A program made the translations under genes and the position numbers. The notes below the pieces were generated by a model that made no database searches, was not told the DNA's origin, and worked only from the letters and a program-made list of their open reading frames with translations. Shown in pieces: positions 1 to 52,770 of a stretch of DNA of 52,770 nucleotides. Position 1 is the first letter of the stretch. Each line of letters starts with the position of its first letter. Source of the stretch: Phage PEA2-3; the sequence record MW508890.1, one strand, 5' to 3'.

Positions 1-120
1 TTTTTTTTCGCCAGCGTAAATTTTTTTTTCATCCGGTTCTGATATTAATAAAGAGATAAACCGGATCATACATATAGACGCCTCTAAGTAGCTGTTTTTA
101 TTACTTCTAATATAATTAAT

Positions 121-143
121 AATATATAATAATAATAATAATA
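121..143. repeat. (AAT)n microsatellite within AT-rich left-end region 1..368
   Basis: Run aataataataataataataa read directly; surrounding 368 bp is non-coding and strongly AT-rich. Confidence 0.8.
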
Positions 144-320
144 ATAAAATAAATATATACCCCCTTTATCCGGTACTTGTATCCCCTTATTACCCCCTTA
201 ATCTTTTTATAGGGAGCCCATATATTATGATTTGTAAAAGAGTAATAAAATCATACTCTTAGGGTCCATATATTTAATTATAGTTTAAATATTAATCAGT
301 TTGTAAAATAAGCTTAAAAA

Positions 321-366
321 ATAAGGGCTTAGGATTTTTACAATTACCCAAGCCCTTGATTTACCT
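321..366 (-). terminator. Intrinsic-terminator-like hairpin 3' of the replication gene
   Basis: Imperfect inverted repeat agggcttagg / cccaagccct; on the minus strand the stem is followed by a T run (plus-strand A run 316-323) just after the stop of 369..2903. Confidence 0.4.
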
Positions 367-368
367 AC

Positions 369-2903
369 TTATTTTAACTTCTTAGCAGTGTCATATCCTC
401 GCTCTGTCAGGCAGTAAATGTTAGCAGATCGGCCTCTTGTGGGCTTATATATTTGGACTGCTAAATAGTCCTGGTCAATCATATCCTGCAGCATACCGTC
501 AATGACTTTGTTATTAGCTGTAATATTAAAACCGTAATTCGATTTAAACCAGCTCAAAGACTGACGAATAGCATATATGCTTAAACCATTCATCTGGAGG
601 TGTTCTTCCCGGATACTTCTCACGACACCCTCAGGATAATGCTTAACAATACCGTTCCATCCGCTTTTGGTGTAAAGGGCCAAAATGTCCCTGTAGACTT
701 TTAGGAAGCCGTCCACTACTTCGGCGTTGGTAGTTGGTGGTGCGACTATCCTGCTTGTGTTATTGACCCAGGCGGTTATACAACGAAGAACATATTTGTA
801 AGCCCATTCGATGTTGTCCCTGGTCATTACAGGAGCATCCCAGTTGTCGAGTAATCCAATAAGTGCTGCTATATTGAATACATACTCACCCATTCGGCCC
901 ACAAAGGCAGATGCTACTTCGTTATCCCTGTAATACTTGCGCATGTCATTAATATTGCACTGGTACTCGTACAGGAAGTCGTCATCGTCCGATTCGTCGT
1001 AAATAGGAATCGGGTCGTGCCTTAGTTTACCGTTAGGAGGGATAGCATTCACATAAGCGATTGCTTCCAGCTTCTCAATCAGCTCTTTGGAGAATTGAGT
1101 ACGGCGAATCTGCTGGCGACGTCCTACCTTCTCAGGTTTGGCAAACTCCGCTCGTTCATAGTTAGGGATGAACAGGAAGCGGGGCAAAAAGCCACTTGAG
1201 AAGTCTTGCTTCCGGGTGTTGTCAAGGATAAGCTCTTGAGTTGAGTCACCCAGGATAGAGTAACACGGTTCGCTTACTGTCTTGACATCATTGTCAGCAT
1301 TAGCACGTTTGATACCTGTCAGAATACCACCAACCTTACGCTTGGTTGAAGCGTCCATCAGAGCTTTCTGAAAGTTGTCCGGGTTGTTAGGATTCATGCG
1401 TAAGCCAGAACCTAAAGCCAGACCAAATTCAGGGTAGAACAACTGGACTGAATGGTATGACGGGTTGGACATCAGTTCAGCAAACGTCCTGGTTGCAAAA
1501 GTCTGTTCCCTTGGGATACGGTTAAGGCTGATAGGCGATGTATCAGGTAAGCTTGCCTGGATTTGTGGGAACATCTCAGTATACAACGATTTACCGATTG
1601 ATGAACCACCCACAAGAATGATGTTGGTTACCAGGAAGTTAGCATGACCGCCTACTGGACAAACATACTTGCGACCAGCGCAGTTGCTCAGGATGTTAAG
1701 AGCTGTGCCGATGGCATAGTCGTTAACCCTGTTAGCCGGAGATATGTTATCCTGTATCTCAGCAATAAGCCGTTTAAACCCGGACGGGGCCGTTCTGACG
1801 AATACATCAGAAGGCAGAATATCGTCGTTAACTTTAAACTCAACGTTCTCAGCCAGGGAGACACCTGAATTCTTGGCTAACTCTTTGTTGATGTCAAGAG
1901 CAAACTTGGTCTTGACGAATAAGCCGTCACGTTGCATTTCTTTCAGTACAGTCTTACCGACACGACTGAACCACTGGTGATACTTGTCAACAGACAAGTT
2001 GTGTCGACTTGGTCTGCGACCTTCGTATGCTGCAGCTTTGCTGGCCATGAAGATGCGTTGTGTAACTTCGTAGTTACGGGTTACACGAAGCAAGTCTTTG
2101 AGTATGCGGCTTAACCGTTCAGAACCGTCATTACTCACACCAACACCGTCTGGTGCATGCTCATTCAGGTAGTGCTCTAAAGCCCAGCGAGTATTATCGG
2201 CTAACTGTTCGTACAGCTCTTTGTCATACTCTTCGCCACGGTCTTCGTCTTGCTCAAACTCAACATCAATATCAGGTGCGCTTGCTTCAAGAAAGAACTT
2301 CTCAATTGCTGCATGCCATTCACGGGCTGAAACAGGATTAGCATTGAACTCGCTCAATACATTGCCTGTCATTACCAGGAACATCTCAGCCTTCTGGATT
2401 TTGATGTCCAGCTGTTCGTCTTTCTCTTTTGATGTTGCTGCAGTCCAGGGTAAAGGGATTGCAATGTGTTGCCCTTTGCCAGAGATTGACGTCTCAGCAT
2501 AAGCACCATGGGTACCCTCAATTATCGCTTTGTGGGTTGCTTCAATGTCTGGATTATCATCATGGTTGTCCAGGTCAACAAAGTACCACTGGCGAGGAAC
2601 AATCAAAGCCGGCACAAAGGTGATATTACCCTGTACAGCTTTAATCTTCATTTCACGATTGCGAATACAACGTGTCAGGGCGTCGTCGAAAGTCATCCAC
2701 TCTTCAGGCACAGTTGTGCTGAAGGAACGGCCTGATGGCGCTCTTGCAGGTTTCTTCGGTTTGGATTGAACTTCAAGAGTCTCGTCTTCGTACGTTAGCT
2801 CAAAGATAGCCCAGCGCTTCATATCTTTGAAGACTTGGGGAATCCCTTCTGGCTTAAAGTATTTCAGACCGAGAATATCACTCGGCTGACTCGTCATTGT
2901 CAT
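369..2903 (-). CDS. Large replication NTPase, primase-helicase-like (D5/P4-alpha-like)
   Basis: 844 aa; mid-protein Walker A GGSSIGKS (NFLVTNIILVGGSSIGKSLYTE); size and position typical of a phage primase-helicase; family by motif recall only. Confidence 0.55.
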   Translation of the reverse strand: MTMTSQPSDILGLKYFKPEGIPQVFKDMKRWAIFELTYEDETLEVQSKPKKPARAPSGRSFSTTVPEEWMTFDDALTRCIRNREMKIKAVQGNITFVPALIVPRQWYFVDLDNHDDNPDIEATHKAIIEGTHGAYAETSISGKGQHIAIPLPWTAATSKEKDEQLDIKIQKAEMFLVMTGNVLSEFNANPVSAREWHAAIEKFFLEASAPDIDVEFEQDEDRGEEYDKELYEQLADNTRWALEHYLNEHAPDGVGVSNDGSERLSRILKDLLRVTRNYEVTQRIFMASKAAAYEGRRPSRHNLSVDKYHQWFSRVGKTVLKEMQRDGLFVKTKFALDINKELAKNSGVSLAENVEFKVNDDILPSDVFVRTAPSGFKRLIAEIQDNISPANRVNDYAIGTALNILSNCAGRKYVCPVGGHANFLVTNIILVGGSSIGKSLYTEMFPQIQASLPDTSPISLNRIPREQTFATRTFAELMSNPSYHSVQLFYPEFGLALGSGLRMNPNNPDNFQKALMDASTKRKVGGILTGIKRANADNDVKTVSEPCYSILGDSTQELILDNTRKQDFSSGFLPRFLFIPNYERAEFAKPEKVGRRQQIRRTQFSKELIEKLEAIAYVNAIPPNGKLRHDPIPIYDESDDDDFLYEYQCNINDMRKYYRDNEVASAFVGRMGEYVFNIAALIGLLDNWDAPVMTRDNIEWAYKYVLRCITAWVNNTSRIVAPPTTNAEVVDGFLKVYRDILALYTKSGWNGIVKHYPEGVVRSIREEHLQMNGLSIYAIRQSLSWFKSNYGFNITANNKVIDGMLQDMIDQDYLAVQIYKPTRGRSANIYCLTERGYDTAKKLK

Positions 2904-3210
2904 TGCTGGTTACCTTAGAAGTTGGCTTGTAGTAATAAGATGATTCAGTGTGTTGACGTACTGTCAAATAGCCTTCCTCTACAAGTCGGTCAAGACCTTC
3001 CTTGATTTTAGCCCGAGCTGCTTCGGGGTCTTTATAATACTCCGCTGCAGGTACGAGTGTTAATGGTGATTTGGTAAAGTAGCGAGTCGGTAACTCTTTA
3101 TTAAACAGGCCGACTTTTGTAATACCGCGTTGCTTGCAGGCATATTCATTGCCTTCGGCGAGTAGCTTAATACCGTTGCGAATATGCCGCAACAGTTTTG
3201 GCTTTATCAT
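2878..3210 (-). CDS. Hypothetical protein
   Basis: 110-aa ORF overlapping the start of the replication gene by 26 nt; no motif recognised. Confidence 0.4.
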   Translation of the reverse strand: MIKPKLLRHIRNGIKLLAEGNEYACKQRGITKVGLFNKELPTRYFTKSPLTLVPAAEYYKDPEAARAKIKEGLDRLVEEGYLTVRQHTESSYYYKPTSKVTSNDNDESAE

Positions 3211-3363
3211 TGAGTCTCTCCTCTTGTTTGTGGGGCTCTCATTATATACACGTTATTAAACCAGAGTAAATAGACTTTTATGTATTTTATACATTTATAT
3301 CTATTTACTTTCCCCTCCTTTATATACATAATAGACTTACATTCTGCTAAGGAGATACAACCA
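3211..3363. promoter_or_regulatory. Divergent intergenic control region
   Basis: AT-rich spacer between minus-strand 2878..3210 and plus-strand 3364..3801; motif ttatataca occurs twice (about 3243 and 3320). Confidence 0.4.
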
Positions 3364-3801
3364 ATGTTTCACACACTCAAGACCTTTCAGGGCGTCAGTC
3401 CTAATACCGACGAACAAGTAATTGAAGAGCACTTTGTTACCTTTCGTACCAGCGACATCGTTGACATTAGCGTAATTGTACACAATGATACTGCCGAAAT
3501 TGTATATCTTACTTTGCGCGGTACCCAGGACGAAGACGGTGCACCGCCTTGCATGACCTTCAGACGTGAATGGCACGCTGAAGCTGTTGAATCACTGGTT
3601 GCATTGCGTGATGCGCTTCATGTTACACCGACTTACTTCACTGACAATGACGGTAGCTTGTTCCCGTACAGCAACGTCATGTATGTCAATATCAAAACAC
3701 GAACCATGCATCTGGTAAATGGTGTTGCTATTGCACTCACCAAAAACGAGTTTGACCGGTTTTATGACGAGTATCGTAACTGGATGGACTTATATAAATA
3801 G
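3364..3801 (+). CDS. Hypothetical protein
   Basis: Start moved inward from track ORF 3280..3801 to the ATG preceded by RBS aaggagatacaacc. Confidence 0.5.
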   Translation: MFHTLKTFQGVSPNTDEQVIEEHFVTFRTSDIVDISVIVHNDTAEIVYLTLRGTQDEDGAPPCMTFRREWHAEAVESLVALRDALHVTPTYFTDNDGSLFPYSNVMYVNIKTRTMHLVNGVAIALTKNEFDRFYDEYRNWMDLYK

Positions 3802-43696: not shown

Positions 43697-45145
43697 TTAC
43701 CGTCCCATATTTATTTTGAGCTTGGTAGTATAACGGTTGATGCCACGCAACACCATGTAACGACAATCATCGTATACGTGGTCTTCAGAGTTCGTGTCGA
43801 CATCTTCCGTGTTGTTCTTGTCACGCGGCAGAACCGGCAACGTGTTTATGGCTGCTGGACAGTTTTCCATGAAATAAATGCCCGGCTTTTCCGTTTCGTC
43901 CATCTTAACATTTTTCAGAAGCTGACGGAATAGCTCTAAGCCATTTATTCTCGAACCTTGTGACTTGTCGGCCTTGACCCAGGTTACGCCTTCGTCTTCC
44001 ATTTTCTTCGCGATAGTCTCAACGTCTTTTTCCTTGCACGCATAAATCTGACTATCAGCCGGACCAGGATTAACGTTGCTTTGAATCCAGCCACCAGCCT
44101 GCAGATTTTCCTGTAGACGAATAATACCTTGAGCGACTTCGGCAGCAGATAATTTAATACCCCTGTTAGCTTCTTTTTCAGAGCACCCATACCATTCAGC
44201 TATACGTATAATTGAACCACGCGGAATAAAGTACTCATTGCCTTCGTCGTCTGTAAGCGAGGCACCATTTGCGATAGCCCAGATACCAACAGAGAACGGG
44301 TGAGTAGAACCCCAGTCAAGAGAACGTTCGATAGTCCAGCCTTTCGGAATACGCATACGCGGTAGAATACACTTGGTTGACCATACGTCGTCAAGCGCAC
44401 CACCAGCAACAATATCCCAGTCGCCTTCCTTCATAGCAGCAACAAGAGCCGGGTCACCAAGACCTTCAAGACGGTCGCCGTAGTCAGGGTCGTTTTCCAT
44501 CAGTGTAGGGTTATCAGTCATTTTAGCCGGAATGTACTGACGCGCCATACCACCTTCGCGTTTTTCCTGCTTAACGATTTTCATCGGAGGAGCAGCAGTT
44601 ACGAAAGTACGCTTAACCCAGTTGTGACCAACACCACCGGGGTTTGACCCACAAAAGATGAGTGGCAGTGGCCGGAAAAAGTTCTCAGGGACTTTGAGAG
44701 CACCGAGTCGGACACGGTTACGCAAGAAGCGGTACATCGTTTCTGTGAAGTGAGTAAGCTCATCCATCAGCAGAACGTGAATCTCCGCACCCTGGTATGT
44801 ATAAATATCTTTTTCATACTGGAGGTGGCAGAGCTTGATGTTCGCACCGTTCCAGAATTTAATCGTGTTGCTCGAGTAGTTAATCTTGCACTTGCCAGCT
44901 TTGCACATACCGTCCAGCAAGGCAGGATAACTTGTGGGACCAACCATGTGGTTAGCCGTAAGGTCGTTATAGTTTCGGCGGAAAAGGTAAATCTGCAAGT
45001 CAGGTATCATGCAGCACATGATAATTGACATTACACGCATAAGGTGAGACTTACCACCACCAGCAGCACCACCGTACAGAATCTCAGTTGCCTGAGACTG
45101 CAGAGCGGCACCTTGTCTGTCATGCAGGTGAAAGTCAAGATTCAT
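43697..45145 (-). CDS. Terminase large subunit
   Basis: N-terminal Walker A ILYGGAAGGGKSHLM; 482 aa; acidic residues in the C-terminal half consistent with a nuclease domain. Confidence 0.85.
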   Translation of the reverse strand: MNLDFHLHDRQGAALQSQATEILYGGAAGGGKSHLMRVMSIIMCCMIPDLQIYLFRRNYNDLTANHMVGPTSYPALLDGMCKAGKCKINYSSNTIKFWNGANIKLCHLQYEKDIYTYQGAEIHVLLMDELTHFTETMYRFLRNRVRLGALKVPENFFRPLPLIFCGSNPGGVGHNWVKRTFVTAAPPMKIVKQEKREGGMARQYIPAKMTDNPTLMENDPDYGDRLEGLGDPALVAAMKEGDWDIVAGGALDDVWSTKCILPRMRIPKGWTIERSLDWGSTHPFSVGIWAIANGASLTDDEGNEYFIPRGSIIRIAEWYGCSEKEANRGIKLSAAEVAQGIIRLQENLQAGGWIQSNVNPGPADSQIYACKEKDVETIAKKMEDEGVTWVKADKSQGSRINGLELFRQLLKNVKMDETEKPGIYFMENCPAAINTLPVLPRDKNNTEDVDTNSEDHVYDDCRYMVLRGINRYTTKLKINMGR

Positions 45146-45148
45146 TTA

Positions 45149-45439
45149 TTACTCTTCCCCAGTAGTATCTACCACTTTCTGGTCGCCTATTGTAATGTTC
45201 AGGTTGACACCATTACCAGACAGGTTCTGGTCGATGTCTGCTTTGACAACGGATTCTTTCAGTTTAGGATACATGTACGGCATAACGCCCAGTGCACCAT
45301 CCATCATCGCTTTGTAGTCATCTTCACGTTCAGCAAGGATAATAGCTCGTTGCATAACTTCCAACGGGTCCAGTTGGATACGTCGCATCGTGGCCAACAG
45401 CTCTTCTGTTGCCTCACGGGTTTTTTTCGGTTTTGCCAT
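45149..45439 (-). CDS. Terminase small subunit (putative)
   Basis: 96-aa ORF immediately upstream of the large terminase; by position. Confidence 0.35.
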   Translation of the reverse strand: MAKPKKTREATEELLATMRRIQLDPLEVMQRAIILAEREDDYKAMMDGALGVMPYMYPKLKESVVKADIDQNLSGNGVNLNITIGDQKVVDTTGEE

Positions 45440-47102: not shown

Positions 47103-47773
47103 TTGTGTAAACTCCTGTACCGTTGTATCAGAACTTGTTTGTTATCAACATATTCATCATTATAAGTGAAGTCGCTATCAATGTACATCATTAATTTGCT
47201 ACGATCCATTAAAATATCACTTGGACCTGATTGCTTGATTGTACTGATAAACATGTTGTCGATACGGAGTAAGTCTTTTGCGTGTTCTTCAAGGGCCGAA
47301 AGTATCAACTCGGCACCACCTACAATCCAGACGTCAGTACCTCTGGATTCAAGGTCTGCTGCCATCTCACCCAGATTATTGTAGCCTTCTGAAGCCATAA
47401 TCTGGCGAGATACCGGCAGCAGTATTCTGTGGGCTGACATAGGCAGACTCATAGTCATATACGTATTACGACCGGCTAACAATACGCTATGCCCGACCAT
47501 TTTTACCGTTACATCTGCTATCATATTTCGCAACTGGTCATTTGGGAATTGTCCACGTAGTTGCTGATATGCATTATAGCCTGGTTCTGTCGCAATTGAA
47601 TTAGTCATAGTCCTGAAAAAGAGCATGTCTGACGGACATTTCCATGGTAGACCCGATTTAGGAAGCGCACGAACCTCTTCCATGGTCTTGCACGAGTCAA
47701 CCTGATGCTTCATAAACTCCGGAGACAACCCGAATTCCCCATTTTGGCCCATTGCGAAGATTATATTAATCAC
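47099..47773 (-). CDS. folA: Dihydrofolate reductase
   Basis: Aligns by eye to DHFR: MINIIFAMGQNGEFG, LPWKCPSDMLFFRTMT, VLLAGRNTY, VWIVGGAELI; longer than bacterial DHFR (an insertion). Confidence 0.7.
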   Translation of the reverse strand: MINIIFAMGQNGEFGLSPEFMKHQVDSCKTMEEVRALPKSGLPWKCPSDMLFFRTMTNSIATEPGYNAYQQLRGQFPNDQLRNMIADVTVKMVGHSVLLAGRNTYMTMSLPMSAHRILLPVSRQIMASEGYNNLGEMAADLESRGTDVWIVGGAELILSALEEHAKDLLRIDNMFISTIKQSGPSDILMDRSKLMMYIDSDFTYNDEYVDNKQVLIQRYRSLHK

Positions 47774-48263
47774 CTAAAAAGTCCCCAGTAGTGTCGGTCA
47801 AAAGCGAGTTCATAACGTCTTGTGGCAGTATAGCAGGATGGTTACCTGTTTCGATTTTTGGCTTAGTTTTTGGCGCTTTTTGGCGCTCTATATACTCGTC
47901 ATGGGCCTTACAAATGGCATTTACGATGAAATCATGCTGATATGCGTACCATTCATCGTTTTCTGGGTCGTATTTAAGGCCAACATAGTTCATCAACGAC
48001 GACATTACGTGAATGCCTTCGTGGGAAATGGTGTTGTACTTCAGGTCGTCCGGGTGGTACAGTTCGACGACGATTAACAGGTACGGATAGCTAACGCGAG
48101 AGAACGTAAAGGTAGATGCATTACGCGTTTCTCGGTCATTCCAGTTGCCAAAATCAGGCAAATCCATCAGTTTTTGGAGCTCTTCGTGCTCTTTTTCGCT
48201 ACAAACGATAGCCAATTGAGGCGGATATGGCTCTAATTGAACAATTTTCATAATGTTACCCAC
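47766..48263 (-). CDS. Hypothetical protein with HExxH motif
   Basis: 165 aa with HEGIH; first minus-strand gene leaving the control region. Confidence 0.35.
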   Translation of the reverse strand: MGNIMKIVQLEPYPPQLAIVCSEKEHEELQKLMDLPDFGNWNDRETRNASTFTFSRVSYPYLLIVVELYHPDDLKYNTISHEGIHVMSSLMNYVGLKYDPENDEWYAYQHDFIVNAICKAHDEYIERQKAPKTKPKIETGNHPAILPQDVMNSLLTDTTGDFLGD

Positions 48264-48486
48264 AAGTAGGAGACCGTGAGGCCGTTTGATGATTCACATT
48301 AATGATAGCGCGTGGAGGAGAGAAAGTACACCACTTTTTAGTGAGTGTCTACACAATTTCCGAAAAATATAAAAAAATTTTAGAGGGGCTTCACTTATTA
48401 TTGTGTTAAGCAAAAGGTTAGCTCCTGTCGTATCACTCTGATGATGATTGGTCCTGATAAGGAGAAAATACCAAAAAATAAAAAAA

Positions 48487-48560
48487 TTCCGCTGGCTCCT
48501 GGCGGATAGCACCCCTGCGAAATTACCCCCCGCCGCACCTATTTCAATTGAAATGATTAC
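48487..48560 (+). repeat. Direct repeat unit, copy 1
   Basis: ttccgctggctcct ... gcacccct ... ccccccgccg ... atttcaattgaaatgattac. Confidence 0.6.
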
Positions 48561-48662
48561 TCTGGTAACTATTATGATTGGTACAATTACCGTGTGAACT
48601 ACTTCGGCCGTTATAGCACAAAGCGTCTATAATTCAGATTGAAATTATATTTTTAGAAATAA

Positions 48663-48735
48663 TTTCGCCGGCTCCTTTAAGTGGCACCCCTATGTTATTA
48701 TAACCCCTGCCGACCATTTTGGATTGAATAATTAC
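48663..48735 (+). repeat. Direct repeat unit, copy 2
   Basis: tttcgccggctcct ... gcacccct ... cccctgccg ... ttttggattgaataattac; same block order as copy 1, about 176 bp downstream. Confidence 0.6.
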
Positions 48736-49101
48736 ATGTGAAACTATATCAATTGCATATGAGAACCACTCTCAATTGCAAGTGATTATCATTTCTAAAA
48801 ACTTGCATAAACTTACAAATAAAAGGTGTACAATCAAGAGTGATTGGACTATTATATATTTATTGAATGTGATGACCAAGTGACCAGTCAACTGGTCTGG
48901 AGGGTATTAGTATGGTTTAATTTGGGTAGGTAGTACTTAACCAGTCAACAGGTACATCTGGTAGATGTCAATGGTACCTTTTGCTCTTTAACAATCTGGT
49001 AACATGTTTCTTGTTGATAGTAACACTAGTAATAGTTTCAACCAGTGACTATTGGTAACAGTAGTCACAACTGGAAACTAGTACAAGAGGTGACTATTAA
49101 G

Positions 49102-49248
49102 ATGGACAACTACACACTTTGGTATGATACCAATGAAGGGCTTTGGTGTGTCAATATAAACAATGGTCCAGTACCAGACTTTGAGTCAATGGATGTGGAA
49201 GATTGTGTTGACTTTATCCAATCCCAAGTTATTAAATATCAGGAGTAA
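49102..49248 (+). CDS. Hypothetical small early protein
   Basis: Start set at ATG 49102 after agaggtgac; track ORF began at 49045 inside an operator-like inverted repeat. Confidence 0.4.
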   Translation: MDNYTLWYDTNEGLWCVNINNGPVPDFESMDVEDCVDFIQSQVIKYQE

Positions 49249-49252
49249 TAAG

Positions 49253-49426
49253 ATGAAAGTTTTAGAATTGTCCCAAGAAGAACTGGAATTATTGGTTGAC
49301 CAACTGGACACAACCTTATTTATGGAAAGTGAACTACTGGAAGTGGATAAGGAGTATGGAAGGGATGTCAAAGACCTGGAAGTGAGGGTCAAGTTACTCC
49401 AATCAATTCTGGATAAGTTGAAGTAA
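49253..49426 (+). CDS. Hypothetical small acidic early protein
   Basis: ATG 49253 after aggagtaataag; 57 aa. Confidence 0.45.
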   Translation: MKVLELSQEELELLVDQLDTTLFMESELLEVDKEYGRDVKDLEVRVKLLQSILDKLK

Positions 49427-49521
49427 TTTCCAACAATGGGGACTTGGTAAAAGTCCTCATGATTGGATTTACTTGTCAAGGATTGACACCTATCAAAAAT
49501 TCTATCAATGAGGATACATCA

Positions 49522-50076
49522 ATGACTAACTATGTTTACCTGACTTCCGCTTTTTCTGTTGAGTCTGTAAAATCTGGTCTGACTACTGAAAGTCTTGGGA
49601 CTATTGTAGTGCAGATGGATAGTCTTCAGTACTTTGCCAATAACCAGATCATTAAGATGATTAAGTCCCTTAATGATGAAAGTTCTGTAAGTGTCAAGGA
49701 CTCAAAAGAAGTGTTGGTCAAGGCATTGTTTGATGAACTGAACCAACTGGAAGTGGAAGAGGTCAAAGTTGTGGCATCAAAATCTTCCAATGGCGGGGCC
49801 CGGAAGTCATCTGGTCCATCAACCAAGGACACTTGTTATCTGGTGTTTAAGGATTATAACCTGATGGATAAGGAAGATTCCAAATTGGCACTAGTTGATG
49901 CCATGAAAGCCTGTGGGATGGAGGCGGATGACATCAAAGCCAAAAGAGTTATCCAGTCATATATGTCATACTACCGGAATGATGTAAAATCTGGTAAAGT
50001 GACTGAGGGCAAGTCAGTAACTGGCAAAAAACCTGATACTGAAGTAAAACCTGAAACCCAAGAAACTGAAGAGTAA
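49522..50076 (+). CDS. Hypothetical early protein
   Basis: ATG 49522 after gaggatacatca; 184 aa with Lys/Glu-rich C-terminal tail. Confidence 0.45.
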   Translation: MTNYVYLTSAFSVESVKSGLTTESLGTIVVQMDSLQYFANNQIIKMIKSLNDESSVSVKDSKEVLVKALFDELNQLEVEEVKVVASKSSNGGARKSSGPSTKDTCYLVFKDYNLMDKEDSKLALVDAMKACGMEADDIKAKRVIQSYMSYYRNDVKSGKVTEGKSVTGKKPDTEVKPETQETEE

Positions 50077-50140
50077 TTTTTGAGATGGCACTCAAGTAGT
50101 GCCATCAATTGAAATTATTCACAATCAACAGGAGAGAAAC

Positions 50141-50299
50141 ATGCTTAAAATTAAACTGACCAAAGACCAGGCAATGGCTTTACGGGATATGATGATTGAG
50201 CTGGAGAAGATGGGCACTTTTTCTGATAGTTCTCACACTTCAACTCTTGATTATATTGTTGAGTCCATTGATGACAAATTTTCAGGTTCTGAGGAGTAA
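50141..50299 (+). CDS. Hypothetical small early protein
   Basis: ATG 50141 preceded by the conserved leader attgaaattat...tcaacaggagagaaac; 52 aa. Confidence 0.45.
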   Translation: MLKIKLTKDQAMALRDMMIELEKMGTFSDSSHTSTLDYIVESIDDKFSGSEE

Positions 50300-50304
50300 T
50301 CAAA

Positions 50305-50562
50305 ATGACTGACATTGAGATGAAAAAAGAGCTGGACTTTTATGCTGAGCAGTATTGGGCTGAGTGGGATGAAGGTTCACAAGAATTTGCGGAACTGGTG
50401 ATAGATTCAGGAATTGATGAAGTGCGCCAACACGCCTACATCATCAACATGAATCTGGCGTCAATTATGGGTATCATCGCCAGCGAATTTTCTGATGGCG
50501 AGCGGGACCATGAAGACGTTGTAAGACTGGCAAAAGTTATGGCTTGGGTGGATGCATTATGA
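50305..50562 (+). CDS. Hypothetical small acidic early protein
   Basis: ATG 50305 after gaggagtaatcaaa; 85 aa. Confidence 0.45.
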   Translation: MTDIEMKKELDFYAEQYWAEWDEGSQEFAELVIDSGIDEVRQHAYIINMNLASIMGIIASEFSDGERDHEDVVRLAKVMAWVDAL

Positions 50563-50732
50563 AAGATCTGAAATTGACTGAAGACGAATTGGCGCACCTG
50601 ATTGAATTACTGGAATCAAATGCCCAAATTGTGAAAGATCAAATTTCTGACACTGTTGGCGGTTCCAAAGAGTTTGACAACTTGATGGAAGACTTCCGGC
50701 TGACAATTCAGATCGCAACAAAGTTAGTATAG
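50559..50732 (+). CDS. Hypothetical small early protein
   Basis: ATG 50559 overlaps the upstream stop (ATGA); 57 aa. Confidence 0.4.
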   Translation: MKDLKLTEDELAHLIELLESNAQIVKDQISDTVGGSKEFDNLMEDFRLTIQIATKLV

Positions 50733-50800
50733 TTTCAACAATGAACTATCCAAAGTTGTGATAGTTCATGATTGAAATTATATCAACAGGAGAGAGAAAC

Positions 50801-51190
50801 ATGTACAGTGCAAAATGCGAAGATGGTATCTATACCGTATATTGTGACGGTAAAGTACTCAAAGTTCTGCCAAACGCCTTCAAGTTTGAGCAATTCATGA
50901 CGGTGTTGTGGGAGAACCAGGAGATTAGTCGGGAAGACATTATCGACCTGATGAATCCCTTGATGGGGTACCATCCAATTCGTGAGTTTGACAGTCGTCC
51001 AACTTGGTACAAGCTGGAAGATGGCAAAGTCTGGGAACAAGCCTGGGACAGATTTGAAGGTGGTTACGGCCACTGGACGGTTTACGTCGATGGTGATGAC
51101 GCCCAACGCTACTGGGAAGCAATCAAAAATTGTGCGACCCGGGATGTGACTGATCCGGAATACGACGAGTCAAAATTTGAGGTCAAGTGA
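50801..51190 (+). CDS. Hypothetical early protein
   Basis: ATG 50801 preceded by a second copy of the conserved leader; 129 aa, Trp/Tyr-rich. Confidence 0.45.
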   Translation: MYSAKCEDGIYTVYCDGKVLKVLPNAFKFEQFMTVLWENQEISREDIIDLMNPLMGYHPIREFDSRPTWYKLEDGKVWEQAWDRFEGGYGHWTVYVDGDDAQRYWEAIKNCATRDVTDPEYDESKFEVK

Positions 51191-51390
51191 TGCCACTAGT
51201 CAAATTTACGACGGTAGACCTTGCCCATGGATTGCCACCCAAAGCTGAACAAAAATTCTTGACAGTTGAGGAGTGGCATATCTGGTGCCAGTCAGCTCTA
51301 AAATCTGGGGCTAAACGCACTAATGGTGGAAAAGTGTTTACTCGCTTCAATAAAGAGTGTATAATAGTAGTTCAGGTAATGATAGAGTGA
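51190..51390 (+). CDS. Hypothetical small early protein
   Basis: ATG 51190 overlaps the upstream stop by one nucleotide (track ORF starts at the GTG 3 nt earlier). Confidence 0.35.
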   Translation: MPLVKFTTVDLAHGLPPKAEQKFLTVEEWHIWCQSALKSGAKRTNGGKVFTRFNKECIIVVQVMIE

Positions 51391-51617
51391 TATTAGTCAA
51401 GTCCTGGCGCTGACAGGGCTTGATTAAAAGCTGGTAATTAATTCAATCCTGAGTATTTGATGAAAGTCCTCATGCTTGAATTAACCCACAAGTGGAGGCC
51501 TTATGGTCCGCTGTAAACATGTTGTTGAGTATTCTGTTGTGAATCCTGCATATGCTGAAGGTCGGGCGATGAGGAAGCTGGTTGGGGTCTTTATGATAAT
51601 TCTTATGGTATTGGCTT

Positions 51618-51863
51618 ATGTTTTCTAAGGATGATTTATATGACATTGCTCGACGTGTTAATCAACGCGATTTATCTGGTGTTACCGATCTTTTTTCTGC
51701 CGGCACTTCTGACGATGCGGTATTACGCGAAGCGGAGCGGCGCCAAGCAGAAATACAAAGAACTGCAAGCTGCTGGGATTATCAACCCCCGAAAACTGTA
51801 CCGTTAACCTGGGTTGACATGACAATTTGGTTATTGAATAAACTTGGAATAAGGAGCAAATAA
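51618..51863 (+). CDS. Hypothetical protein
   Basis: 81-aa track ORF with no obvious RBS; an alternative-frame small ORF with an RBS overlaps it. Confidence 0.3.
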   Translation: MFSKDDLYDIARRVNQRDLSGVTDLFSAGTSDDAVLREAERRQAEIQRTASCWDYQPPKTVPLTWVDMTIWLLNKLGIRSK

Positions 51864-52042
51864 TGTTTAAATTCTTACAACGTAACCCTGTCAAAGGTGG
51901 CATGCAATACTGGGTGGACATCCATGGCGGTGAGTATATGATGATTGTCCGCGATGGTAAACCTGCTGAAAGCTCTTTCGCTAAAGGTTGCAACGTTTAC
52001 AACCAATTGTTTGAGTTCCTGGTTGAAGGTGATTACTTGTGA
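51863..52042 (+). CDS. Hypothetical small protein (59 aa, below the ORF-track cut-off)
   Basis: ATG 51863 after aaggagcaaata, overlapping the upstream stop (TAATG); read MFKFLQRNPVKGGMQYW ... EGDYL by hand. Confidence 0.45.
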   Translation: MFKFLQRNPVKGGMQYWVDIHGGEYMMIVRDGKPAESSFAKGCNVYNQLFEFLVEGDYL

Positions 52043-52224
52043 TTGGCTTAATCCTGGCAACATGTGTGGCTACTCATGATTGTAGTTACAAAATTGTTGA
52101 ATACAAACCTGAATGGACTACCGTTGAACAATGTGTCGCTGATAGTCCATACACCCTGCTAAATCTTGGTATTATCCCTGCCAAAAATCAGCGTGTCATT
52201 TGTGACGAGCTGAAACAAGATTAA
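52039..52224 (+). CDS. Hypothetical small protein
   Basis: 61-aa ORF with GTG start overlapping the upstream stop. Confidence 0.3.
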   Translation: MIGLILATCVATHDCSYKIVEYKPEWTTVEQCVADSPYTLLNLGIIPAKNQRVICDELKQD

Positions 52225-52652
52225 TTAACGTGATATTGAGTGCCGGGCGCAACGTAATAGTTGTAGACCCGGCAAAATTGTTCCCATGTTAATTCTACTA
52301 GACCCACAAAGAGGCGGTTCGATGCCTCGCTAAAAGTCGTGCCACTTGGAAAACAGTCAATCACATCAGCCTTATTCATCACCACGGTAGGCTGTTTTCT
52401 TGGTAGTTCGTATATCAGTACCGGCATCTTGTTTTGAGCCTTTGCCGATGCCGCACACTGTCTCCACCATGTTCCGATAGACTTGGTATTGTGCTTCTTC
52501 AGTTCAACGCTGAAAAACGGTACACCCAGCAAGTCATCCCCGCCATTAATAGACTGTTGAAGATTGCGCTCAACAGTTAATCCGAACGAGCTATTGAACT
52601 TCTTAGCCATTTTGCGCTCAAAGTTCTGTCCTTTCTGCCGAATATTAACCAT
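52221..52652 (-). CDS. Hypothetical protein, possible PD-(D/E)xK-type nuclease
   Basis: 143 aa; GGDDLLGVPFFSVELKK gives a D ... ExK arrangement; weak motif-level inference. Confidence 0.3.
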   Translation of the reverse strand: MVNIRQKGQNFERKMAKKFNSSFGLTVERNLQQSINGGDDLLGVPFFSVELKKHNTKSIGTWWRQCAASAKAQNKMPVLIYELPRKQPTVVMNKADVIDCFPSGTTFSEASNRLFVGLVELTWEQFCRVYNYYVAPGTQYHVN

Positions 52653-52770
52653 TTATTTAGCCTCGTATACAATTCAAAGATTTGGTAACCTGCAACATTG
52701 ATAAATATTGTAACACATCTTTTTTATAGTGTAAACGTCTACAGATTTATTTATCAATCCGGCTTTTTTA

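Follow-up and report, generated by a model that had tools for sequence, protein, structure and literature searches.

The window analysed here is the full 52,770-nt record of Phage PEA2-3 (MW508890.1), with position 1 as its first letter. It is a complete Rosemountvirus (BP63-like myovirus) genome in a collapsed and circularly permuted form. Between a leftward gene at 47766-48263 and a rightward ATG at 49102, it contains a non-coding gap of 838 bp. The leftward gene belongs to phrog_1365 and is without a Pfam match, and the leftward operon starts at 48263/48251. On the other side, the first small gene of the terminal repeat (DTR) block (49102-49248, plus strand) encodes 48 aa and belongs to phrog_5461. 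The gene for the terminase large subunit lies at 43697-45145 on the minus strand, ~3 kb from the gap; no small subunit was recognised, the 96-aa product of 45149-45439 being one candidate for it. A Ku/Gam-like end-binding protein beside the gap was considered as context and dropped, being without Pfam support. The first-pass annotation had described the gap as the switch between a minus-strand late/metabolic block and a plus-strand small-gene block. A switch from a leftward metabolic/packaging block to a rightward small-gene block is confirmed, and the gap is non-coding and dense in conserved DNA sites and promoter-like elements.

Over the gap region, the window is ~98% identical to the Salmonella phages 8-19, SE-SHZ-R and vB_SalM_Sz (Rosemountvirus). 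We aligned the gap across 16 genomes, which covered Rosemountvirus, Loughboroughvirus (S144, SE4, AEV23), the Erwinia phage SOI901, the fHy-Eco03/KM and KE25 lineages and two metagenome contigs. Pattern scans for more distant relatives returned two loci in IMG/VR and three in metagenomes, all of them close relatives. A scan for tRNA and tmRNA genes gave none. Rfam 15 at gathering thresholds had no match in the whole window, and at permissive thresholds gave chance-level matches only (E > 2) in 48100-49300.

The two direct repeats of the first-pass annotation were recovered in the same block order. Unit 1 (48487-48560, plus strand) has the head TCCGCTGGCTCCT at 48488-48500, and unit 2 (48657-48735, plus strand) has the head TTCGCCGGCTCCT at 48664-48676. 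The next two blocks, GCACCCCT (48509 and 48684) and CCCCYGCCG (48527 and 48704), each occur at these two genome sites only. The fourth block, ATTGAA (48547 in unit 1, 48723 in unit 2), is lineage-specific. Global alignment of the units gave 61 identical columns out of 89 (69%; z = 9, 2000 shuffles), a likeness that was not approached by any other 86-nt stretch on the two genome strands. Motif conservation in related genomes had been proposed as a check on the repeats, and both units were found in 16/16 relatives, Rosemountvirus, Loughboroughvirus and an Erwinia phage among them. The start-to-start distance was 175-177 bp in each of the eight phages measured, with flanks down to ~70% identity.

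Half-sites of the ATTAC type follow at a 15-bp period on the plus strand (48556-48591), starting at 48556, 48571 (ATTAT) and 48586. In the Erwinia phage SOI901, the half-sites are three 11-bp GTAAY-N-ATTAC palindromes. ATTAC/GTAAT was observed four times in 48515-48740 against 0.58 expected, in a post hoc test.

Boundaries of the terminal repeat and their shared core

The position of the genome ends was transferred from relatives; in the sequences below, a slash marks the cut. For fHy-Eco03, a DTR of 3,699 bp was called by PhageTerm and confirmed by restriction digests (PMC8145870). Its record carries the repeat at both ends, with repeat_region 1..3699 reading ...AAAAATTTGCC/GGGGCTTAAATT in window orientation, and the repeat start (...TTTGCC/GGGGCT) aligns with 48493/48494 of the window. 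The vB_SalM_Sz record, with its ends as deposited, has a 4,263-bp repeat at both ends, starting ...AAAAAAATTCCGCT/GGCTCCTGG. The two repeat starts thus fall in one alignment column, window 48493/48494, and both repeats end in ...TTTTT(C/G)CGCC/, which corresponds to window 12/13. For the Klebsiella phage AEV23, the DTR was published as 3,915 bp (PMC12918118), and both cuts transferred to this phage by alignment lie exactly 3,915 bp apart. Exactly past the right cut, the AEV23 record becomes chimeric (IS5/host-like DNA), which fits a genome end because an assembly running off the physical end would look so. Restriction mapping of S144 placed a physical genome end within the same gap (PMC7432712).

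In the window, the left DTR boundary transferred from three relatives is 48493/48494 (...AAAAAAATTCCGCT/GGCTCC...). The last bases of the unique region (48466-48493, plus strand) are an A-tract flank (A6TA7) and TTCCGCT, and the left cut would follow 48493. The repeat itself, collapsed in the assembly, is predicted to span 48494-52770 plus 1-12 (plus strand; 4,289 bp in total); its duplication is visible in the records of the relatives only. By homology, the packaged DNA is shown to start at 48494 and to end after the second repeat copy at window 12. The bases of unit 1 from 48494 onward (GGCTCC...) would accordingly be the first of the DTR, and we regard it as highly probable that the virion DNA has its left end at the head of unit 1.

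Three features of a DTR genome end were found: a physical end, by homology with the relatives; a kilobase repeat at both ends, in the vB_SalM_Sz and fHy-Eco03 records; and a common boundary sequence. Two other types of end were rejected. A cohesive-end (cos) site is ruled out by the DTRs of the three relatives and by S144, in which the restriction patterns were unaltered by heating followed by fast or slow cooling, excluding cohesive ends (PMC7432712). A headful pac site is ruled out by boundaries that are base-identical in three relatives and by the PhageTerm classification of fHy-Eco03 as DTR. Unit 2 lies 176 bp inside the repeat. None of the three DTR relatives has a mapped end there, and no records with ends at unit 2 were found.

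The right DTR boundary (1-40, minus strand; predicted cut at 12/13) reads AAAAAAAAATTTACGCT/GGCGAAAAAAAA. Comparison of its minus strand (AAAAAAAAATTTACGCT/GGCGAAAA) with the left boundary (AAAAAAATTCCGCT/GGCTCC) and with unit 2 (AAATAATTTCGCC/GGCTCC) gave the core A-tract-TTN-CGCY/GGC, which is present as an inverted copy at the right boundary and as a direct copy heading unit 2. The pattern W7-TTN-CGCYGGC occurs at two sites in the genome only, the two DTR boundaries, in opposite orientations. The shorter TTNCGCYGGC has four genome sites, three of which are unit 1, unit 2 and the right boundary. The palindromic GCC/GGC at the center of the core is kept in all relatives, and the boundary core is conserved in 6-8 of them. 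The right boundary is without the C-rich blocks of the units, so that the two boundaries have the core alone in common. A second motif shared by unit 2 and the right boundary (GCCG...GGATTGAWAA) was found in window-type phages only, and was dropped.

Position matrices were built from other phages only, and both strands of the window (~105,000 positions) were scanned. The matrix of the right boundary had its best match at the right boundary of the window and its second at unit 1. The unit 1 matrix, built from six other phages, had its best match at unit 1, with the right boundary and unit 2 within the top four distinct sites. Its second match in the genome was U0, a weaker third A-tract-led copy (AAATATAAAAAAATTTTAGAG/GGGCTTC; 48365-48392, plus strand), which is conserved in all relatives and is found 109 bp to the left of unit 1, beyond the DTR. 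Neither U0 nor the related site 4.3 kb off at 12/13 had been seen in the first-pass annotation. The unit 2 matrix scored 35 bits at unit 2 of the window. Of all copies of the cut-site core, the one heading unit 2 (TAATAATTTCGCC/GGC) is conserved best, and it hardly varies over three or more genera. Within lineages, units 1 and 2 co-vary in the six bases that follow the cut (GGCTCC/GGCTCC, GGCGCC/GGCGCC and GGGGCT/GGGGAA).

Candidate transcription signals and a predicted structured leader

Left of the units, an invariant block (48302-48351, minus strand) contains candidates for the leftward promoter, with two sigma70-like options: TGTACT (48330-48325)-17-TATCAT (48307-48302) and TAGACA (48351-48346)-17-TACTTT (48328-48323). 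Across 16 relatives, the sequences AAAGTACACCACTTTTTAG and TAATGATAGC show no or hardly any differences; both options fall short in the consensus promoter scan. The A/T tract of U0 could serve as the UP element of the leftward promoter.

Right of the units, two 23-bp tandem boxes (TATCAATYGCA; 48736-48758 and 48759-48781, plus strand) and an inverted repeat (TGCAAGT...ACTTGCA; 48777-48788 and 48796-48807) lie just upstream of a candidate rightward promoter. The operator-like boxes of 48736-48807 hardly vary among 16 relatives and have no second copy in the genome, and TTGCA is enriched in this region (post hoc test). The promoter candidate itself (48827-48855, plus strand) is sigma70-like, TGTACA-17-TATTAT, with 9 of 12 consensus matches. 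Its -10 element is TATTAT, TATAAT or CATAAT in 16/16 relatives, and the -35 block GTGTACAA is almost invariant. TACAAT at 48829 was rejected as a -10 element; canonical -35 hexamers are misspaced for it, and GTGTACA is better placed as the -35 of the TATTAT promoter. In the consensus scan, promoter-like sites were no commoner in the gap than in shuffled sequences. From the position of the candidate, we infer that rightward transcription would start near 48862.

The transcript would begin with a leader of ~240 nt. Its first elements (plus strand) are a hairpin GACCAG/CTGGTC at 48882-48897, a Shine-Dalgarno sequence GGAGG at 48899-48903 and a mini-ORF ATG GTT TAA at 48912-48920. In Loughboroughvirus, KM and fHy-Eco03, this place is taken by a different hairpin with AGGAGG and ATG TAG after it.

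A second hairpin (48950-48995, plus strand) has its outer stem at 48950-48955/48974-48979, around a palindrome at 48954-48968. It is followed by the terminator-like, U-rich TTTGCTCTTT and then by an invariant 13-mer, GCTCTTTAACAAT (48983-48995), which is unique in the genome. All six pairs of this hairpin are kept in five distinct sequences, with two compensatory pairs. In window-type and S144-type phages, the stem followed by UUUGCUCUUU makes 48950-48992 a candidate intrinsic terminator, which went uncalled in the scan. The hairpins of BP63-type and KE25-type phages at the 48950 position are unrelated and have no good U-run. The third hairpin (49036-49076, plus strand) contains GTGACTA/TAGTCAC and closely precedes the ribosome-binding site of the first gene in the DTR. 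RNAalifold gave 15 pairs for it, with none broken in 12 sequences and compensatory changes in four. The U.G pairs of this hairpin fit the plus-strand RNA only.

These hairpins bear on the palindromes and accagt sites, which the first-pass annotation had suggested as binding sites of a regulator. All of the motifs are where they were reported: the palindrome GACCAGTCAACTGGTC at 48882-48897, ACCAGTCAACAGG at 48940, the palindrome ACATCTGGTAGATGT at 48954-48968, and ACCAGTGACT at 49041 within the inverted repeat GTGACTA/TAGTCAC. ACCAGT was counted four times in 48870-49060 against 0.26 expected (post hoc test). Only the closest relatives share the first copy (48883), and the second and third adjoin leader hairpins. 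The regulator-site reading is not upheld for the accagt sites and the ACATCTGGTAGATGT palindrome, which lie in the predicted leader, downstream of the best promoter candidate. The palindrome is within, and the accagt site of 49041 beside, stems that have compensatory changes and G.U pairs fitting the plus-strand RNA only. RNA structure is thus a better reading of these motifs than operators.

Outside the units, the rest of the gap thus appears to be transcriptional, with the leftward block, the boxes, the rightward promoter and the structured leader.

A candidate packaging array and alternative readings

Taken jointly with the packaging and transcription readings, the gap is probably the junction between the unique part of the Rosemountvirus chromosome and the ~4.3-kb DTR. 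The units would be a DNA recognition and cleavage array for terminase, rather than operators or iterons, because unit 1 starts at the first base of the DTR and its core recurs in inverted form at the other boundary. We hold it slightly likelier than the contrary that units 1 and 2 are terminase recognition elements.

According to this model, the core A-tract-TTN-CGCY/GGC would be the site at which terminase cuts or nicks concatemers. It occurs once per DTR boundary, in mirror orientation, with the A-tract flank outside the repeat at both. Nicking of the A-tract strand at both boundaries would leave both 3'-OH ends facing into the repeat, because the asymmetric A-tract flank lies outside the repeat in each case. 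This is the geometry that duplication of the repeat by strand-displacement fill-in would need, and such fill-in is the classical Watson/T7 scheme. To the packaged side of this left cut, units 1 and 2 and the ATTAC sites would form an array that loads terminase, probably via the small subunit. The array would mark the left boundary as the start of packaging, as opposed to the core-only boundary at which packaging terminates.

A more specific version seems doubtful, though worth stating. The left boundary would be a previously undescribed packaging-initiation array in which the same strand is nicked at mirrored cores, both 3'-OH ends prime duplication of the repeat, and unit 2, uncut and 176 bp inside, is an obligatory terminase-loading site or a second priming site. 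If this were true, the family would be a tractable model for the measurement and duplication of long terminal repeats, a process that beyond T7 is poorly understood. The weak point of the packaging model is unit 2, which has the best-conserved core yet is an end in no relative.

An improbable alternative is that the units and the neighboring repeats are operators, at which a phage or host regulator would control divergent early promoters. The divergent promoter-like elements of the gap agree with it, as do the conserved direct and inverted repeats directly upstream of the rightward -35 and the A/T tract of U0, placed where an UP element of the leftward promoter would be. However, the rightward promoter candidate is 160-370 bp downstream of units 1 and 2, and no recognisable DNA-binding regulator gene adjoins the gap. 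Operators also do not account for a unit 1 start that is the exact genome-end base in three relatives, nor for a core repeated at the other DTR boundary, 4.3 kb off. The earlier proposal of repeated regulator sites is therefore tenable in part: it is reasonable for the boxes at 48736-48807 only, and finds no specific support for the two large units, given the genome end and the distant core.

An equally improbable reading makes the array a replication origin or the priming site of DTR duplication, with the ATTAC sites and the units as iterons. The 15-bp period of the ATTAC-type sites between the units, the long A/T tracts and the strictly conserved unit spacing would suit an origin, and the cumulative GC skew has its minimum near 48 kb. 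The S144 paper reports that the phage has its own polymerase and primase (PMC7432712), so T7-like, transcription-primed initiation near the promoters is conceivable. Against this, the skew minimum coincides with the switch in transcription direction and is thus not diagnostic. The gap has no DnaA-box cluster (a lone box with one mismatch lies at 48256), no IHF consensus and no adjoining initiator gene. As a candidate origin, an AT-rich microsatellite region by the primase gene (window 100-200) is no worse, and an origin would leave the inverted core at the other DTR boundary unexplained. The iteron-like origin suggested by the first-pass annotation thus has the ATTAC period weakly in its favor, and no DnaA cluster, IHF consensus or adjoining initiator gene was found.

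Could unit 2 be left over, without function, from an ancient duplication of the end sequence at this locus? That it is not a mapped end in any relative would be consistent with this. We consider it very unlikely, since its head stays nearly invariant over three or more genera while the flanks fall to ~70%, its distance from unit 1 is fixed to +/-1 bp, and its first six post-cut bases co-vary with those of unit 1.

The units are best read as acting as DNA, not RNA, because no consensus structure was found (RNAalifold: 0 conserved pairs in the 16 unit sequences), single-sequence fold z-scores of -0.7 to +0.9 on both strands were no better than those of shuffles, and Rfam gave no match at gathering or permissive thresholds. 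With the terminator scan also empty at the units, there is hardly any chance that they encode small structured RNAs on the minus strand, with a T-run after each, although a minus-strand T-rich run ends each unit and the region is non-coding and conserved. The T-runs were rejected as terminators, being uncalled by the scan and without stems in other genera. The alternatives to the terminase array rank as operators, origin or priming site, relic duplication and small RNAs.

Known systems and placement of genome ends

The closest documented parallel is found in the Twort-like staphylococcal myoviruses. In the Kayvirus vB_SauM-515A1, the repeat junctions carry an inverted 12-bp sequence, TAAGTACCTGGG/CCCAGGTACTTA (PMC7596081). 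Both groups have kilobase DTRs with small early-type genes and a short inverted boundary sequence. The motif sequences are unrelated, and the phage lineages and hosts differ. The two ~80-bp units at 176-bp spacing also set our phages apart; no such array was found in the Twort-like literature searched.

T7 and T3 have defined ends and a DTR, with site-specific cuts at both repeat boundaries and duplication of the repeat by DNA synthesis. Early promoters for the host RNA polymerase lie just inside their left end, and the T7 repeat is non-coding. It measures 160 bp, compared with ~4.3 kb and about a dozen small genes here. A phage RNA polymerase is absent here (PMC7432712).

T5 (Tequintavirus), which like T7/T3 is a functional analogue, resembles our phages in a long DTR of small unknown or host-takeover-type genes and in a repeat-rich, non-coding inner boundary, which here would be window 13-330. 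The terminal repeat of T5 is 10 kb long and carries the pre-early genes, and the hallmarks of this phage are two-step DNA transfer and nicked DNA. Lambda cos (cosQ-cosN-cosB) has 12-nt cohesive ends and no terminal repeat. The proposed array would be analogous to cosB in its logic, with repeated recognition elements for the small subunit of terminase adjoining the cut site on its packaged side. The difference from lambda is that cohesive ends were excluded by experiment in the relative S144 (PMC7432712).

For this family, coordinates or lengths of the DTR have been published before; the literature searched contained no description of the array of units 1 and 2, of the boundary motif or of its inverted copy. 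With the motif, sequence alone suffices to locate the true ends and the DTR (3.7-4.3 kb) with single-base precision. It also offers a testable model of terminase recognition and repeat duplication for phages of Salmonella, E. coli and Klebsiella that are under development for biocontrol and therapy. For engineering, both boundary cores, unit 2 and the 176-bp spacing should be kept intact. With respect to regulation, the operator idea is moved to the smaller block at 48736-48807, and a structured early leader is identified.

Almost all of the ~60 public genomes of the group were deposited collapsed and arbitrarily opened. The opening of the window is 12 nt left of the right cut, within the T-run; that of the LPSEYT record is 7 nt left of the cut at unit 1, and that of BP63-type records ~77 nt right of the right cut.

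The right boundary of the terminal repeat

The right boundary of the direct terminal repeat (DTR) is housed in a non-coding stretch of ~0.7 kb (52650-52770 and 1-330). T-tracts lie on both sides of the cut between positions 12 and 13, as do ATCCGG repeats (52757-52762 and 31-36), and an inverted ATCCGG copy was located nearby at 59-66. On the minus strand, the same stretch contains a strong sigma70-like promoter, consisting of TTTACA (52735-52730), a 17-bp spacer, and TACAAT (52712-52707). Also present are three CCCC(C)TT boxes at 160-197 and an (ATA)n microsatellite at ~113-150, the length of which differs among relatives. The stretch may represent an origin. Alternatively, it may be a zone of repeats like that found in T5 at the inner boundary of the terminal repeat.

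A mobile-gene hotspot adjoins this boundary. In many relatives (LPSEYT, SPLA12, KE24, birk, and others), the right-boundary sequence matched in two pieces around an insertion of ~0.5 kb, the annotation of which varies between a homing endonuclease and an anti-repressor Ant.

A third repeat copy and the leader

Outside the DTR, a weaker third A-tract-led copy of the large left-boundary repeats (U0, 48365-48392) reads AAATATAAAAAAATTTTAGAG followed by GGGCTTC. In the window, it is situated 109 bp to the left of unit 1, the first of these large repeats. Phages of the Erwinia, KE25, KM, and fHy-Eco03 lineages carry an insertion equal to about two helical turns, and their U0 copy is displaced by a further ~20 bp to the left.

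In the leader, the presumably transcribed region preceding the first DTR gene, a Shine-Dalgarno sequence (GGAGG) stands ahead of an ORF of two codons, ATG GTT TAA (48899-48920). In Loughboroughvirus, KM, and fHy-Eco03, this position is occupied by AGGAGG and then a start-stop pair, ATG TAG. This combination of Shine-Dalgarno sequence and mini-ORF may serve to load ribosomes or to stabilise the mRNA. The 13-mer GCTCTTTAACAAT (48983-48995) occurs once in the genome and showed no differences among the 16 aligned relatives; the hairpin 5' of it was swapped for unrelated hairpins in some lineages.

Genes flanking the gap

In the window, the first DTR gene has its start codon displaced by one codon as compared with the relatives (49096-49107). 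The gene starts at 49102 because two bases are swapped, changing ATTATGAAGGAC of the relatives to ATTAAGATGGAC. On the other side, the product of 47766-48263 (minus strand) yielded no Pfam match, and its PHROGs match was to a family of unknown function only. Its homologue was named Ku/Gam-like protein by the S144 authors (PMC7432712), and mass spectrometry underlies the annotation of gp12, the homologue in fHy-Eco03, as a virion-associated protein.

Anomalies in public records

The record of Klebsiella phage AEV23 (GenBank OR810919; 3469-3800) is chimeric. The right DTR cut marks the exact end of its phage part (…TTTTCCGCC), beyond which the record runs into sequence including an IS5 transposase gene. 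GenBank PP583539, a record named 'Listeria phage 220426122051', shares 97% identity with these Salmonella/E. coli phages, both over the region and over 20 kb, and its Listeria host label looks doubtful.
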